A stretch of DNA of 45,246 nt from a virus (Duplodnaviria > Heunggongvirae > Uroviricota > Caudoviricetes), in the IMG/VR virus record IMGVR_UViG_2711768010_000017; one strand, written 5' to 3'. The first letter of the stretch is position 1, and each line of letters opens with the position of its first letter. The notes under the pieces were generated by a model that saw only the letters and a program-made list of their open reading frames with translations, searched no databases and was not told the DNA's origin. Shown piece by piece: positions 1 through 45,246 of the stretch. A program made the translations under genes and the position numbers.

Positions 1-165
1 AAGAAATAGGGCTTCCACCTGGGAAGCCCTTTCTTTTTATAGTTCGGCTGTATGTAGGGTACAGCACGATGAATCTGTTAGAGGCGCAATAGTGACAGAT
101 TTGATTATCAATTCCTATTTTGTTCTAAGGATAAAACCTTAGGTTGTGATCATCCGCACAATCCC

Positions 166-408
166 TTAGTAACGCCAGCGGTCATAACGCTGATATTTCG
201 GCACTTTTGGTGCTTTAATCGCCTTAATAACCCACACCACCGCAATCGCCAGTAGTAACCACGGCAGCAACTTAATCATCAATGCCAGCATACCGCCGAG
301 GAACATAATGGCCGTCGCCACAACCAGCGCGGCGATAATGCCCAGCAACGAAACGCCGGTGACCATCAGCATGACAAAAAAGCCAATCACAAAAAGTAGT
401 TCCAGCAT
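166..408 (-). CDS. pspG: Phage shock protein G (small hydrophobic inner-membrane protein); the track ORF 166..618 is an upstream over-extension
   Basis: 80-aa very hydrophobic product MLELLFVIGFFVMLMVTGVSLLGII...KYQRYDRWRY from an internal ATG with GGGAGAG RBS; lies immediately downstream of dusA as in E. coli. Confidence 0.7.
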   Translation of the reverse strand: MLELLFVIGFFVMLMVTGVSLLGIIAALVVATAIMFLGGMLALMIKLLPWLLLAIAVVWVIKAIKAPKVPKYQRYDRWRY

Positions 409-443
409 GATGCTCTCCCAAATATGAAATCTCTTGCTGGCAT

Positions 444-459
444 TACAAGAATCATGCCA
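444..459 (-). promoter_or_regulatory. Candidate sigma54-type promoter for pspG (TGGCAT-N5-TTGTA on minus strand)
   Basis: Minus-strand TGGCAT gattc TTGTA about 35-50 bp upstream of the pspG ATG; one mismatch to the -12 consensus; psp genes are known to be sigma54 dependent. Confidence 0.2.
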
Positions 460-541
460 AAAATAATCTATTGATTTAACAGCAAAACGCCCCGCGACGG
501 TGCGCAGGGCGTGGTGAATTTGACTACTTTTTGGTGAAAAG

Positions 542-1579
542 TTAACGCTTATCCGCCACCAGTTTGAGCGCGTGTTCCAGCACATTAATGTCTGCACCCG
601 CTTTATGGGCATTTTCACTTAAATAACGCCGCCACTGCCGCGCGCCAGGAATACCCTGGAACAAGCCCAACATATGCCGGGTAATATGGCCGAGATACGT
701 CCCCTGGCTGAGTTCACGCTCAATGTACGGATACATGGCGCGCACTACCGCCACCGGATCGGCATCGGTATCCGAGGAACCAAAGATCTCCCGGTCTACC
801 GCCGCCAGAATACCCGGATTCTGATACGCCTCGCGCCCGACCATCACGCCATCCATATGTTGCAGGTGTGCTTTGGCCTCTTCCAGCGACTTGATACCAC
901 CGTTAATCGACATTGTCAGATGCGGAAAGTCACGCTTCAGTTGATACACACGCGGATAATCGAGTGGCGGGATTTCACGGTTTTCTTTCGGGCTTAACCC
1001 CGAAAGCCAGGCTTTACGTGCGTGGATGATAAACATCTCACACTCGCCTTTGCCGGAAACGGTGTTGATGAAATCGCAGAGAAATTCATAGCTGTCCTGG
1101 TCATCGATGCCAATACGCGTTTTCACCGTCACTGGAATCGACACCACATCGCGCATCGCTTTCACGCAGTCGGCAACCAGCTGCGCATTACCCATCAGAC
1201 ACGCACCAAACATGCCGTTCTGCACCCGGTCAGACGGGCAGCCGACATTCAGGTTGATCTCATCATATCCACGCGCTTCTGCCAGCTTCGCACACTGTGC
1301 CAGCGCCGCCGGATCGCTACCGCCGAGTTGCAACGCTACCGGATGTTCTTCTTCACTGTACGCCAGGTAATCACCTTTACCGTGAATAATCGCCCCTGTG
1401 GTCACCATTTCGGTATACAGCAACGTATTGCGGGAAAGCAGACGCAAGAAATAGCGGCAATGTCTGTCCGTCCAGTCGAGCATAGGAGCAATGCTAAACC
1501 GAGAACTCCAGTAAGCGCCAGTTTTTTCAGGCATCACGCTGGTTTGATTAGTTTTCTGTGTTTCAGGATTATCGTGCAT
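542..1579 (-). CDS. dusA: tRNA-dihydrouridine synthase A
   Basis: 345-aa ORF with conserved Dus core ([26 protein letters not shown]); the prophage integrase starts 88 bp beyond its 5-prime end. Confidence 0.9.
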
Positions 1580-1612
1580 TTTTGAACATTTCAGGCTATT
1601 TTTCTCGCGTTA

Positions 1613-1647
1613 GGTTCCCGCACAGGTTCCCACGCTTTATGGGAACC
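1613..1647. repeat. GGTTCCC direct repeats plus inverted copy (hairpin) in the dusA-int junction; candidate att/arm-type or promoter element
   Basis: ggttccc at 1613-1619 and 1625-1631, gggaacc at 1641-1647 forming a 7-bp stem with 9-nt loop. Confidence 0.3.
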
Positions 1648-1667
1648 CGAAATAACGAGGTCGTGTA

Positions 1668-2765
1668 ATGGCGTACTATAACATAGAGAAACGACTAAAA
1701 TCCGATGGCACACCACGCTATCGCTGTAATGTGATTATCAAAGAAAAAGGTGTTATCACTTACAGGGAAAGCAAAACATTCCCTAAACATGCTCATGCCA
1801 AAACATGGGGCGCACAGAAAGTGATGGAATTAGATCTATATGGCATTCCATCATCAAATGCTGTTGACGGACTTACAGTCCGTGACTTACTACACAAATA
1901 TTTAAATGACCCAAATGCCGGAGGTAAAGCAGGCCGTACTAAAAGATATGTGCTGGAACTGCTTATGGATAGTGACATCTCCGCGATCAAACTATCTGAA
2001 CTGACAGAAAATGACGTAATTGAACATTGCAGGCTAAGAAACAACGCTGGTGCAGGCCCAGCAACAGTCAGCCACGATGTTAGTTATCTTGGCAGTGTTC
2101 TGGATGCGGCAAAACCTGTATACGGAATCAATTACACATCAAACCCGGCGAAAAGCGCTCGTCCATATCTACTTAAACTCGGTTTGATTGGTAAATCAAA
2201 CCGTCGTAATCGTAGACCAGCATCTGATGAACTGAACATGCTCATTGAAGGCCTTCAACAACGATCTACTCATAAATGCTCAAAAATTCCGTTCGTTGAT
2301 ATCCTCAAATTTTCTGTGTGGTCCTGTATGCGAATCGGAGAAGTATGCCGGTTACGATGGGAAGATCTCGACCAGGAACAAAAATCTATACTAGTAAGAG
2401 ACAGGAAAGATCCACGTAAAAAGGAAGGCAACCATATGAAAGTTGCCTTGCTTGGGGAAGCCTGGGATATCGTCCAGCGACAACCCAAAAAATCAGAATT
2501 CATTTTTCCATATAACAGCACTTCTGTTACCGCAGGATTTCAGAGGGTAAGAAGCAAATTAGGTATTAAAGATCTGAGATACCATGATTTGCGTAGAGAA
2601 GGGGCAAGTCGCTTATTTGAGGCTGGTTTTAGTATTGAGGAAGTCGCTCAGGTTACAGGGCATCGTTCATTAAACGTGCTATGGCAGGTATATACCGAAC
2701 TGTATCCGAAATCTTTACATAATCGTTTTGAAGAACTCCAAAGGAGCAGAAATAAGACCTCTTGA
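1668..2765 (+). CDS. int: Tyrosine integrase of the dusA-targeting family
   Basis: 365-aa ORF with ATG preceded by GAGG RBS; C-terminal catalytic region HDLRREGASRLFEAGFSIEEVAQVTGHRSLNVLWQVY with R/H/R/Y-type signature; sits next to dusA 5-prime end. Confidence 0.85.
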   Translation: MAYYNIEKRLKSDGTPRYRCNVIIKEKGVITYRESKTFPKHAHAKTWGAQKVMELDLYGIPSSNAVDGLTVRDLLHKYLNDPNAGGKAGRTKRYVLELLMDSDISAIKLSELTENDVIEHCRLRNNAGAGPATVSHDVSYLGSVLDAAKPVYGINYTSNPAKSARPYLLKLGLIGKSNRRNRRPASDELNMLIEGLQQRSTHKCSKIPFVDILKFSVWSCMRIGEVCRLRWEDLDQEQKSILVRDRKDPRKKEGNHMKVALLGEAWDIVQRQPKKSEFIFPYNSTSVTAGFQRVRSKLGIKDLRYHDLRREGASRLFEAGFSIEEVAQVTGHRSLNVLWQVYTELYPKSLHNRFEELQRSRNKTS

Positions 2766-3296: not shown

Positions 3297-3848
3297 ATGC
3301 ATGACAATATTTGGTTTACATATAAAGCACGTATCCAAGCGCACCATCGACTAGAATGGCTTGAAAAACACTCTCAATTTATCCTCGTTTGGTATGCTAT
3401 ATTGAGTGCGGTACTTTCAATTGTAACGTTGCGATTTCCAAAGGTTCTAGGAGATAATACAGATGTCGTTGCGGCGATACTTTCAGTGGCTCTACTGGGT
3501 ATTTCTCTGATCGTATCTAACCTAGATTTTCGTGGTCGAGCAATAGCCATGAGAAGGAATTATATTGCACTACAGCGACTCTATTTTGACATTACCACCA
3601 GTCAACAGTTATCTCTTGAACAGAAAGAAAAATATTTTAATTTGCTCAATGAGGTTGAGAATCACCGTGACATAGATGATAAAATTTCAAGGGTAACTCA
3701 AGTTGGACTTAAGACGAGGATCCCCACACAAAAAGAAAAAATAATTGTTATTTTATGGATATTACTTCGAATATTTATTACTGCCGCACTTTATATACTC
3801 CCATTAATATATCTTTGGATTGACTATGACTGCAAGCAGAATTTTTAA
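3297..3848 (+). CDS. Membrane protein with three predicted TM helices; candidate effector partner of the downstream RT
   Basis: 183-aa ORF with AAGGA RBS; hydrophobic segments FILVWYAILSAVLSIVTL, VVAAILSVALLGISLIVSNL and C-terminal IIVILWILLRIFITAALYILPLIYLWI; AT-rich; overlaps RT start by 23 nt. Confidence 0.7.
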   Translation: MHDNIWFTYKARIQAHHRLEWLEKHSQFILVWYAILSAVLSIVTLRFPKVLGDNTDVVAAILSVALLGISLIVSNLDFRGRAIAMRRNYIALQRLYFDITTSQQLSLEQKEKYFNLLNEVENHRDIDDKISRVTQVGLKTRIPTQKEKIIVILWILLRIFITAALYILPLIYLWIDYDCKQNF

Positions 3849-5196
3849 AAAGTCATTCTCGAAAAAAAATCTTCTAAAAGTATACTCTGAAAAAATCAAA
3901 GAATCAGGAGCGATTGGCATAGATCGGATTCGCCCATCAAAACTTGATTTGACAATAAAAAATGAGATCACTTTCATTTTTGAAAAGGTTAATTCTGGCA
4001 ATTACAAATTTACAGCATATAAAGAAAAATTAATATCTAAAGGCGCTAACTCTACACCCAGACAGATTTCCATACCAACTGCTAGGGACAGAATTACTCT
4101 TAGAGCTCTCTGTGAATGCCTTACGGAAATATATCCTAAGTCCAGATTAAAACTACCACATACAGTAATTGACTCATTGAAAGAAGCATTAAACAACAGT
4201 CTATATGCTGAATATGCAAAAATAGATCTTAAAAGTTTCTATCCTTCAATTGAACATAAATTGATAATTAATGCAATAAAAAATAAAATTAGAAAAAAAG
4301 AAATTAGACAGTTAATAACATCATCATTAATCGTGCCTACTGTAAGTGGAACCACAGGAAGCAAAGGTATCCCTAATAATACCAGAGGAGTACCTCAGGG
4401 ATTAGCGATATCAAACATTTTAGCTGAAATATCACTATCTAATTTCGATGATGAAATCAATAAAATGCATGACATATGGTACATGCGATACGTTGATGAC
4501 ATTCTTATTTTAACACCAAAATATCAAGCAACAAAAATAGCTTCTCATATCATTGATAAGCTTCAATCATTAAATTTAAACCCACATCCATTAAATGAAG
4601 AGAACTCAAAATCCAAAGTAGGCAGCTTGGATGAAAGTTTCAACTTTTTGGGCTACCACATAAAAAATCGAGAATTATTGATAAAACATGAGAGCATTCT
4701 TAGATTTGAGTCATCCTTAGCAAAAATTTTTACTGCATATAGACACGCTCTACTACAAGCTAAAAATAAGCGCGATAAAGAACGAGCTGTTGCATATTGT
4801 CAGTGGAAACTAAATCTTAGAATTACGGGATGTGTGTTTGAAGGTAAACGATTGGGATGGGTATCGTACTTCTCACAAATAACGTCAACAGCTCAACTTC
4901 GAGCTGTTAATCATACGATCAATAATCTTATCCGCCGATTCGGCCTTTCATCAGAAATAAAACCAAAGTCTTTGATTAAAACTTTCTATGAACTCCGCAG
5001 GGGTAGAGCGGAGACTTTTAAATACATACCTAACTTTGACAATCTACATATATCTCAGAAACGAGAAATTGTTTCTATGTGGATAGGGAAAGAGAATGAA
5101 AAAAAACTTAGCAATAGTGAAATAGAGAGAAAATTTAAATTTAAAATTGCGAAATCAGTAAAAGAGCTTGAAGAGGACATTTCAGGGATATCATAG
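3826..5196 (+). CDS. Reverse transcriptase (defence-associated type, retron-like or UG/Abi-like; family unassigned)
   Basis: RT motifs in order: GIDRIR, RQISIPTARDRITLRAL, KIDLKSFYPSIEH, GVPQGLAISNILAEI, YMRYVDDILIL (YxDD), FNFLGYHI; about 200-aa C-terminal extension; first ATG at 3826 (track start 3820 is TTG). Confidence 0.85.
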   Translation: MTASRIFKKSFSKKNLLKVYSEKIKESGAIGIDRIRPSKLDLTIKNEITFIFEKVNSGNYKFTAYKEKLISKGANSTPRQISIPTARDRITLRALCECLTEIYPKSRLKLPHTVIDSLKEALNNSLYAEYAKIDLKSFYPSIEHKLIINAIKNKIRKKEIRQLITSSLIVPTVSGTTGSKGIPNNTRGVPQGLAISNILAEISLSNFDDEINKMHDIWYMRYVDDILILTPKYQATKIASHIIDKLQSLNLNPHPLNEENSKSKVGSLDESFNFLGYHIKNRELLIKHESILRFESSLAKIFTAYRHALLQAKNKRDKERAVAYCQWKLNLRITGCVFEGKRLGWVSYFSQITSTAQLRAVNHTINNLIRRFGLSSEIKPKSLIKTFYELRRGRAETFKYIPNFDNLHISQKREIVSMWIGKENEKKLSNSEIERKFKFKIAKSVKELEEDISGIS

Positions 5197-43715: not shown

Positions 43716-43997
43716 ATGAATACCTTGTTTTTACTGATGGCTGAATTCAATACCCCAAACATTGAACTCTCAGCAGTTAGTCAAAAATACTTTGGTATGA
43801 GTCCAGCCACAGCAGAAGCAAAAGCAAACGCTTGTAAGTTGCCTGTACCTACATATCGCATCGGTACATCACAAAAAGCAAAACGTTGCATCAATATTCA
43901 GGATCTTGCGGAATACATAGACAAAAGACGAGAAGAAGGACGTATCGAGTGGGAACAGGTCAGAACAGGCAAACAGAAGGGCAAAGAACATCACTAA
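43716..43997 (+). CDS. Small DNA-binding regulator (PrtN/pyocin-activator-like by recollection)
   Basis: 93-aa ORF with GGAG RBS; basic C-terminus; followed by a terminator. Confidence 0.45.
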   Translation: MNTLFLLMAEFNTPNIELSAVSQKYFGMSPATAEAKANACKLPVPTYRIGTSQKAKRCINIQDLAEYIDKRREEGRIEWEQVRTGKQKGKEHH

Positions 43998-44044: not shown

Positions 44045-44218
44045 TCATGCTGCTTTGCGACGACGAAGCTTACCCTGCTGCTCTTTACCAGAGACAGTAG
44101 CGTGAGTGAACGCATTAGGAGCAGCCTTCATCAGAACTTCAACAGCAGCACCCATACCTGCGAATGCTTTCATTGTGTCGAACTTAACCTGTGGCTTGGT
44201 TGCTTTTTGATCTTCCAT
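44045..44218 (-). CDS. Small basic protein (57 aa), below the ORF-track length cutoff
   Basis: ATG with GGAG RBS 7 nt upstream; product MEDQKATKPQVKFDTMKAFAGMGAAVEVLMKAAPNAFTHATVSGKEQQGKLRRRKAA. Confidence 0.4.
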   Translation of the reverse strand: MEDQKATKPQVKFDTMKAFAGMGAAVEVLMKAAPNAFTHATVSGKEQQGKLRRRKAA

Positions 44219-44257
44219 AGAAAACTCCAGAAGCTATACCGAAACAATTCCTGTTGT

Positions 44258-44677
44258 TTACTCATCATCAATAGATGATACGCAATATTTATTTTTAAAT
44301 TTAAGGTTCTTTGGCGTAACTTCATCAGATATATCAAAACCGTCCAGAATTCTATTGAATGTAGCTTCTGGCATATCATCATGAACGGAAATCTCACCCG
44401 ATCGCTGCTTTCTAACCATGTTATCCACTCGCCAAATTATAGCTTCAGCGTAAACAACATAACTTGGATGCTTGATAAAGCGATGATCACCAGAATTCAA
44501 GACGCAAGACGGATCGTGGGGGACACCATCCTTGATACTAGAAATATTAACAACTAAAACACAATAACAATCGTTAACGGGGTAATAAACAGGATCATTA
44601 CAAATCACATGAAGATGATTGCATGGCCCAGTTGGGGCAAGCACAGTTCCTTTCCTGTATGGCTGATAATCCGTCAT
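44258..44677 (-). CDS. Hypothetical 139-aa protein, candidate toxin partner of the upstream Panacea-like protein
   Basis: ATG overlaps the stop of the upstream gene (ATGA); Cys/His-rich segment CNHLHVICNDPVYYPVNDCYC; no recognisable family. Confidence 0.5.
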   Translation of the reverse strand: MTDYQPYRKGTVLAPTGPCNHLHVICNDPVYYPVNDCYCVLVVNISSIKDGVPHDPSCVLNSGDHRFIKHPSYVVYAEAIIWRVDNMVRKQRSGEISVHDDMPEATFNRILDGFDISDEVTPKNLKFKNKYCVSSIDDE

Positions 44678-45246
44678 GATAATTGCAAAGAAAATTCCTT
44701 AAGTTTCTGAGATTCTTCCATTTTGCCAATTATACGATTAGCCTCATCCTCGCTTTTACCCTCACTGATCAGCATTTCTTTCAGGTCTATAGGCTTACGA
44801 GAATTGCCAGGATTGTGCCACTCTGGACAAACGCTTTCTAAATGCGTCATGTTTGCGAGATCAAATCGGTTCATATGCCCATACAGAGAATAGATTTCAT
44901 CTAAAATCCGGATATCTGCACGGCTCAACTCATCAAAGACCTCGTCTGCATCCATTTCCCTCGGATCTGAACGCAACAACACATCATGCCCGTTCGTCTC
45001 TATCAGGTTGTACCAGTAGTCACCAATACCTTCAGCCTTACCACGAATCAAGTTCAGCGTATTCGACATGACTGGACCAAATTTCATAGAGTAAAGGCTA
45101 TCTTCGCCGATCATCCTGCCATGCTTCAAAATCGACTTGCGGTTAGACAGATAGAGCAGCTTCATCAATTTCAGATATGCCATGCGCCCACCTCGCTTAA
45201 GAAGTAGGTATGCAGCCATTTGAGCTACTTTTTCTTCGCAAAACAT
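44674..45246 (-). CDS. Panacea/DUF4065-like (SocA-like) protein, candidate antitoxin; 5-prime end at window edge
   Basis: MAYLKLMKLLYLSNRKSILKHGRMIGEDSLYSMKFGPVMSN resembles the Panacea antitoxin domain signature as recalled; ORF reaches the window boundary. Confidence 0.55.
   Translation of the reverse strand: MFCEEKVAQMAAYLLLKRGGRMAYLKLMKLLYLSNRKSILKHGRMIGEDSLYSMKFGPVMSNTLNLIRGKAEGIGDYWYNLIETNGHDVLLRSDPREMDADEVFDELSRADIRILDEIYSLYGHMNRFDLANMTHLESVCPEWHNPGNSRKPIDLKEMLISEGKSEDEANRIIGKMEESQKLKEFSLQLS

Follow-up and report, generated by a model that had tools for sequence, protein, structure and literature searches.

A prophage attachment junction within Escherichia coli dusA: a phage-borne gene start and putative arm-type integrase sites

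Farrugia et al. (2015) defined the dusA-associated integrases, reported that the elements carrying them replace the dusA 5' end, and named phage mEp460 as one carrier (PMC4482086). Phage 1720a-02 (Phi-stx2dact) integrates 100 bp into dusA at a seven-base core, which leaves int next to attL and an in-frame phage dusA' open reading frame (Balasubramanian et al. 2019; PMC6328086). The dusA-specific element IMEVchUSA3 provides a promoter and a new DusA N terminus, and RdfN, a homologue of PrtN, acts as the recombination directionality factor (RDF; excision factor) of a dusA-specific element (Durand et al. 2021; PMC8409611).

The DNA analyzed here is a stretch of 45,246 bp, referred to as the window. 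Its left end is E. coli chromosome with pspG followed by dusA, whose product matches NCBIfam DusA models (E values of 1e-168 to 6.5e-175), and next to dusA is the tyrosine integrase gene int (Table 1). Downstream of int are, in order, a DinI-like gene and a SLATT and reverse-transcriptase gene pair, followed by lambdoid prophage genes for tail, head, lysis, replication, and immunity, and the window ends at the start codon of a Panacea-domain gene. We consider it about 90% probable that a dusA-specific tyrosine integrase has integrated a lambdoid prophage of about 44 kb, whose attL end is seen here, and that the dusA 5' end has thereby been replaced.

Phage 1720a-02 is among the systems most like this one. 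The integrase (Int) is 99.2% identical to that of 1720a-02 and 98.1% identical to that of mEp460. As in 1720a-02, int adjoins attL and points away from it, the insertion falls roughly 100 bp inside dusA, TCCAGTCGAGCAT.GGAGC contains the core, and dusA' is in frame with the host gene. Unlike 1720a-02, the prophage has no stx genes in the stretch examined, and it carries SLATT and UG17 reverse-transcriptase cargo after the DinI-like gene, which 1720a-02 does not. There is no essential difference from the family of Farrugia et al., with which the window shares a tyrosine recombinase next to the dusA 5' end, a semiconserved att repeat in a conserved region of dusA, and replacement of a dusA 5' end that includes the first beta-strand. 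Elements of the IMEVchUSA3 and SGI1-like type also integrate in the dusA 5' end, supply a new N terminus of equal length, and encode a PrtN-family RDF. However, IMEVchUSA3 is a mobilisable island, whereas the element in the window is a phage, and promoter activity has been measured for IMEVchUSA3. Over 35 residues the new IMEVchUSA3 N terminus shares 61% identity with native DusA; in the window 20 of the first 30 residues match.

The central phenomenon is thus already known for essentially this integrase, because it has been published for near-identical integrases (PMC6328086, PMC4482086, PMC8409611). The 1720a-02 paper does not describe arm-type sites (PMC6328086), and Farrugia et al. do not mention them (PMC4482086). 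No description of arm-type sites of dusA-specific integrases was found in the literature searched, coverage of which was incomplete and does not prove novelty. The arm-site layout set out below is a modest refinement; candidate arm-type sites and a candidate specificity residue are the one addition to published work in the literature searched, and the system itself is not of a new kind.

Table 1. Window coordinates of features at the dusA-int junction and at the distal end of the prophage
Feature	Position	Strand	Remarks
dusA, chimeric coding sequence	542-1579	minus	345-aa open reading frame; core to stop codon host, codons 1-32 phage
Segment TCCAGTCGAGCATAGGAGC containing the core	1471-1489		
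attL core TCGAGCAT, 8 bp	1476-1483		three- and four-way att alignments
Phage-supplied dusA' 5' segment, codons 1-32	1484-1579	minus	also the inner P' arm of attP
dusA start codon	1577-1579	minus	complement of these positions
Divergent int/dusA' spacer, outer P' arm	1580-1667		88 bp, wholly phage DNA
TATTTTT box (AAAAATA on the dusA strand)	1597-1603		18-24 nt upstream of the dusA' ATG
GGTTCCC, first copy	1613-1619	plus	
GGTTCCC, second copy	1625-1631	plus	
GGTTCCC, third copy (as GGGAACC)	1641-1647	minus	
Putative arm-type Int site P'1, AGGTTCCC	1612-1619	plus	position and 12-bp spacing kept in other species, whose motifs differ
Putative arm-type Int site P'2, AGGTTCCC	1624-1631	plus	tandem 8-mer statistics across species
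Putative arm-type Int site P'3, inverted, GGGAACCC (minus strand: GGGTTCCC)	1641-1648	minus	symmetry with P'2 kept
Inverted repeat GGTTCCCA/TGGGAACC	1625-1632/1640-1647		8 bp, 7-nt loop
int Shine-Dalgarno sequence GAGG	1657-1660		
int, dusA-specific tyrosine integrase	1668-2765	plus	365 aa; ATG 1668-1670
PrtN-family open reading frame, 93 aa	43716-43997	plus	Pfam PF11112, E 3e-23; attR end of the prophage

The phage-host boundary within dusA

Alignment with the unoccupied locus of strain K-12 located the transition from host to phage DNA. Window positions 1 to 1483 were 99.3% identical to K-12, with 10 mismatches, all of them silent within dusA. The first 32 codons of dusA (96 nt) had 18 differences from K-12 (81% identity), corresponding to 10 nonsynonymous and 4 synonymous codon changes, and the remaining 942 nt of the gene had 10 differences, all silent. 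Beyond the dusA start codon the sequence was unrelated to the region upstream of dusA in K-12. Divergence from K-12 rises from 1% to 19% exactly at the core. The DusA protein has 10 substitutions relative to that of K-12, all in residues 3 to 30, and is identical from residue 31 onward. The alignment breakpoint and the identity from residue 31 therefore place the phage-host boundary inside dusA and not in the spacer between int and dusA.

A preliminary description, made from the letters of the window, had put the junction at positions 1540 to 1700. The GGTTCCC repeats that it reported are in that interval, but the recombination junction is at the attL core, and everything from position 1484 to beyond 1700 is phage DNA. 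Its proposal that the DusA N terminus derives from the prophage was correct as to origin, but the alignment with K-12 extends the phage-derived part from about 20 codons to 32. The N-terminal peptide that it quoted agreed with the translation, and its placing of the int ATG 88 bp beyond the dusA start, with transcription in the opposite direction, was exact. It had also named the comparison that would count against replacement, namely an N terminus identical to that of prophage-free strains with the junction outside the coding region; in the alignment with K-12, 10 of the first 30 DusA residues differ, and the junction is within the coding region.

The core TCGAGCAT covers dusA codons M33 and L34 and the first two bases of D35. 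Strand exchange must occur within it because it is the only block identical across attL, attR, attB, and attP. The surrounding segment TCCAGTCGAGCATAGGAGC is one base off the published attB of phage 1720a-02 in C. rodentium (PMC6328086). The attL site encodes the conserved DusA segment APMLDWTD, and the phage dusA' keeps RFSIAPM, the first beta-strand, apart from a single conservative substitution (I30, as against V30 in K-12).

Neither a second att core nor a K-12-type dusA 5' end was found within the 45,246-bp window. The attR core was instead read from near-identical genomes because it is about 255 bp beyond the window end. Strain A14 is 100% identical to the window over its last 4.2 kb, and 254 bp past the position of the window end it has a 105-bp pseudogene annotated as "tRNA-dihydrouridine synthase, partial." This pseudogene is a K-12-type dusA 5' end that reaches the same TCGAGCAT. 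In A14, dusA and int are arranged alike and the two cores are about 44.4 kb apart, but A14 is distinct from the source strain, its left end being 99.6% identical to the window and its prophage about 408 bp longer. Strain AR434 was rejected as a source for attR: its junction is a 100% match, but it could not be used because its element is much shorter. Among 5,426 complete E. coli genomes, int adjoins dusA (attL) in 742, or about 14%, and 663 show the matching attR junction. Where a genome is unoccupied, its similarity to the attR probe begins exactly at the core. The copy of the dusA 5' segment that had been predicted for the other prophage end thus exists in A14, and its junction recurs in those 663 genomes.

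The free phage supplies the fourth site of the set. In mEp460, attP is just upstream of int and equals the left side of attR, TCGAGCAT, and the right side of attL. The 96-nt dusA' segment and the complete spacer are both part of this attP, each with one substitution relative to the window (G1580 in the window and A in mEp460 for the dusA' segment; C1636 in the window and T in mEp460 for the spacer). The presence of dusA' in the mEp460 attP directly confirms that the replacement 5' end is phage-borne. The attP core is bordered by the inverted repeat TCCTAT/ATAGGA, which from its position likely represents the core-type sites.

A different origin for the divergent 5' end can be imagined, in which it is an allelic variant or a local recombination patch and the prophage merely sits upstream of an intact gene. 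Further natural dusA 5' alleles do occur in E. coli, for example in strain ZJ3920; a second dusA remnant near zur in K-12, a possible source of the ZJ3920-type allele, was looked for and not found. However, the divergent 96 nt and all of the sequence upstream of it are present on the genome of the free phage mEp460, the K-12-type dusA 5' end survives as a remnant at attR, and the jump in divergence falls exactly at the core. The ordinary-allele reading is refuted by these three observations, and we give it practically no weight. For annotation, this means that dusA in the lysogen should be treated as a host-phage chimera in which codons 1 to 32 and the promoter region derive from the phage, and that the short pseudogene at the distal prophage end, labeled "tRNA-dihydrouridine synthase, partial," is the original dusA start in its displaced position.

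GGTTCCC repeats in both arms of attP

The preliminary description had pointed out direct GGTTCCC repeats and an inverted GGTTCCC/GGGAACC pair, which are present where it placed them. There are three copies of GGTTCCC on both strands of the window, with 4.7 expected by chance; the count is not unusual, but the clustering of all three within 35 bp is. They fill the center of the spacer, 21 to 56 bp before the int ATG. In the P arm of attP, a part of attR after integration, are GGTTCCC and GGCTCCC, 11 bp apart and about 45 to 55 bp from the core. The AGGTTCCC-like copies thus number five, two of them in the P arm and the other three in the P' arm. The first P-arm copy is exactly where similarity among different phages starts, which is what the boundary of an att module should look like.

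The repeats were compared with those of phages of Yersinia, Morganella, Pseudoalteromonas, and Salinivibrio, whose integrases are 55 to 69% identical. Each phage has a repeat motif of its own: AGGTTCCC in the E. coli phage, CAGCACCCC in the Yersinia phage, AGGACACC in the Morganella phage, AGTCACCC in the Pseudoalteromonas phage, and AGTCTCCC in the Salinivibrio phage. All five have two direct copies 11 to 12 bp apart before int and two copies in the opposite arm. An inverted copy after the direct pair is clear in the E. coli, Yersinia, and Morganella phages and degenerate in those of Pseudoalteromonas and Salinivibrio.

A scan of viral contigs for diverse relatives returned near-identical E. 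coli elements only. A species-dereplicated scan, with one genome per species, yielded 78 usable loci with integrase identities of 52 to 99%, in 55 of which the APMLDWTD segment of dusA is encoded divergently about 160 to 190 nt upstream of int. Exact tandem 8-mers with a spacing of 11 to 12 bp were present in the 120 bp before int at 45 of the 78 loci, versus 23 of 2,723 control windows, and a tandem pair together with an inverted copy was present at 23 loci versus 1 control. Across loci the first copy is at a median of 55 bp before the int ATG, the same as in the window. When 18 Enterobacterales elements were aligned, likeness within an element was 92% for the direct pair and 83% for the inverted pair, and likeness between species was 73%. 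In the inverted pair of these elements, five of nine pairs were changed on both sides and 83% of cells pair, a level reached in 0 of 500 shuffles.

These results suggest that the GGTTCCC words are putative arm-type sites for the N-terminal domain of Int, a reading that we consider probable. The idea had been raised in the preliminary description and gains support from a layout that is kept across species with lineage-specific motifs. The conservation of the layout while the motif differs between lineages points to arm-type integrase sites rather than to an RNA hairpin.

The hairpin deserves consideration because the compensatory changes in the inverted pair fit a hairpin and inverted protein-binding sites alike. 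If GGTTCCCA and TGGGAACC acted as nucleic acid, they might fold into a cruciform, or into a stem-loop in the int or dusA leader that governs translation or stability. The 8-bp stem does exist, its symmetry is maintained through compensatory changes in the 18 Enterobacterales elements, and it ends 9 nt before the int Shine-Dalgarno sequence. However, the folding energy of the spacer is near that of shuffled sequence (z of -0.6 to -1.45), which weakens the case for an RNA structure. Examined for stability, a T-run, and an Rfam match, the spacer stem did not have the properties of an intrinsic terminator or a structured RNA. No T-run follows the stem, which is thus not a terminator, and Rfam gave no relevant match, only a chance match to a miRNA inside int. 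The inverted copy has decayed in several species in which the tandem pair is intact, a loss that argues against the hairpin. Furthermore, a direct copy of the motif lies 12 bp upstream, and the other arm of attP has two more. Because these direct and P-arm copies covary as well, protein binding is the only explanation that accounts for all of the copies; a hairpin does not. A nucleic acid hairpin is therefore an unlikely explanation, and putative arm-type sites are the preferred one.

The integrase and a proposed recombination scheme

Residues 187 to 346 of Int match Pfam PF00589 (E 8e-21). Among 74 homologues there is no variation at R222, H332, and Y342 and almost none at H306 and R309; R222, H306, R309, and H332 would be the catalytic tetrad and Y342 the tyrosine nucleophile. 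In tyrosine recombinase type, position of int, att repeat, replacement of the dusA 5' end, and relatedness, Int agrees with the dusA-specific integrase (DAI) family. An AlphaFold2 model of Int (mean pLDDT, 86.9) has three domains: an N-terminal one (residues 2 to 58), joined through a flexible linker to those for core binding and catalysis. The N-terminal domain is modeled as three strands and a helix (pLDDT, 92). Fold searches with this domain alone were not discriminating; full-length lambda Int aligned with Int over 375 columns at about 17% identity.

Lambda attP contains five arm sites, P1 and P2 in one arm and P'1 to P'3 in the other. The dusA phage resembles this arrangement in that Int has three predicted domains and that five repeats, distinct in sequence from the core, are split two and three between the arms. 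It differs in that int is transcribed away from attP, whereas lambda int is transcribed toward it, in that the P' arm holds a fragment of a protein-coding gene, and in that the RDF would be of the PrtN type and encoded on the other side of attP.

In the scheme that we propose, Int bound to core-type sites would exchange strands of attP and attB within TCGAGCAT. Next to its core the attP has diverged dusA codons 1 to 32 and the sequence upstream of them, and integration therefore restores a full-length dusA in frame at attL and leaves the original 5' end behind at attR. The dusA' segment has a dual role, first as the inner P' arm of attP and then, after integration, as the new start of dusA. 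The N-terminal domains of Int would bridge the arm-type copies to the core, as in lambda, and so aid assembly of the recombination complex. Excision would require the PrtN-family factor encoded at the opposite end of the prophage; by analogy with RdfN, the open reading frame at 43716-43997 is a probable RDF. This open reading frame and the predicted attP in free phage genomes are indirect signs of such excision. The sequence comparisons show where the breakpoint is, where each segment came from, how attP, attL, attR, and attB relate, and that the repeat layout is conserved. Others have shown, in near-identical or related elements, that integration is site specific, that the rebuilt dusA is expressed, and what part the RDF plays.

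The residue of Int at position 30, the start of the third strand of the N-terminal domain, varies with motif class: all 21 elements whose motif has a CACC center carry Tyr there, all 4 with TACA carry His, and those with GTTC or GCTC carry Ile or Val. The link is no more than suggestive, as it is confounded by shared ancestry. The candidate arm-type sites and the candidate specificity residue could help in using or retargeting dusA-specific integrases.

Promoter signals and possible regulation of the rebuilt dusA

The spacer presumably holds the promoters of both int and dusA. A promoter and terminator scan of positions 1380 to 1800 returned no sites, with no match to the sigma-70 consensus for dusA or int, and manual reading of the spacer found weak hexamers only. 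Farrugia et al. described putative -10 and -35 elements after integration (PMC4482086), whereas nothing in the region scanned here passed the criteria. The suggestion in the preliminary description that the repeats form part of a new dusA promoter was therefore not borne out by a sigma-70-like match in the region scanned. Because no sigma-70-like promoter was found, the expectation that the rebuilt dusA is expressed in the lysogen rests on analogy with IMEVchUSA3.

The repeats might instead be mainly operators, at which Int or another phage regulator would control the divergent promoters of int and dusA', with no architectural role in recombination. Their location in the center of the 88 bp separating the start codons would suit operators, and a related element has been shown to provide a dusA promoter. 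However, promoter-like hexamers were not found in the spacer, and the two P-arm copies end up about 44 kb away at attR, where in that orientation they adjoin no gene start. The start of similarity between phages exactly at the first P-arm copy likewise resembles the edge of an att module rather than an operator region. We regard a purely operator function as improbable, marginally more so than the hairpin, and retain putative arm-type sites as the preferred reading. The copies may also affect transcription of int and dusA' because they sit between the divergent starts.

A more far-reaching version of the arm-site reading, which we offer tentatively and think rather doubtful, is that the five AGGTTCCC-type repeats are arm sites with a variable center recognized by the N-terminal domain, residue 30 being a candidate for what sets the specificity, and that occupancy by Int might make autoregulation of int and expression of the rebuilt dusA depend on the prophage's recombination state. 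Binding of Int to GGTTCCC, and any regulatory effect of it, would here be deduced from the pattern of the repeats. If true, Int occupancy would tie the expression of a host tRNA modification gene to the recombination state of a prophage.

The TATTTTT box is the sole strongly conserved noncoding block among the 18 aligned Enterobacterales elements. TATTTT (1597-1602) is invariant in all 18, and the seventh position, T, is about 70% conserved. Judging from its composition and position, the box could be a -10 element or a DNA-bending site.

Conserved elements and edge of the att module

The stretch separating the dusA' start from the putative arm-type repeats contains a TATTTTT box whose first six bases were unchanged in 18 of 18 aligned Enterobacterales elements and whose seventh base, T, was mostly conserved among them. 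Across species, residue 30 of the integrase covaried with the four bases at the center of the repeat motif (mutual information of 1.51 of 1.84 bits, uncorrected for phylogeny). Residue 30 is a candidate specificity determinant.

When attP/attR regions were compared between phages (mEp460, the A14 prophage, and strain ESBL 15), similarity started exactly at the first GGTTCCC copy of the P arm (from 2239 onwards in L005 and from 13441 onwards in L004, two of the att-region loci). A mosaic boundary thereby coincides with the border of the att module.

A variant dusA allele in E. coli

A 331-amino-acid dusA allele was found in about one-fifth of complete E. coli genomes. When the region from strain ZJ3920 (L007, 3141-3400) was compared with the unoccupied K-12 locus (L001, 2641-4380), similarity to the K-12 allele ended directly past the att core. 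Beyond that point K-12 has approximately 1.7 kb, which comprises the dusA 5' end and the yjbLM DUF2713 pseudogene, whereas ZJ3920 has 133 bp. A search for a second dusA remnant near zur in K-12 found none. The ZJ3920-type allele may be left over from an old 5'-end replacement that was mediated by an integrase.

Cargo and probable cargo genes of the prophage

By PADLOC assignment, two overlapping genes encode a defense-associated reverse transcriptase pair, situated as cargo with the int and DinI-like genes on one side and the tail fiber genes on the other. Phages mEp460 and 1720a-02 lack this pair at the corresponding position, in contrast to the window prophage. At the right end, three ORFs separate a PrtN-family gene from the attR end. 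These look like inserted cargo because the corresponding PrtN-like ORF of Yersinia phage YeP1 directly abuts attP.

Positions of the features discussed, in window coordinates
Feature	Position	Strand	Remarks
TATTTTT box	1597-1603		TATTTT, 1597-1602
Int residues 1-30	1668-1760		
SLATT_5 protein	3297-3848		Two-transmembrane; PADLOC RTasSLATT, E 1.5e-56
Reverse transcriptase	3820-5196		458 aa; PADLOC RT_UG17, E 1e-158
Three ORFs	44050-45246	minus	
Panacea-domain protein	44674-45246	minus	SocA-like antitoxin; one of the three ORFs
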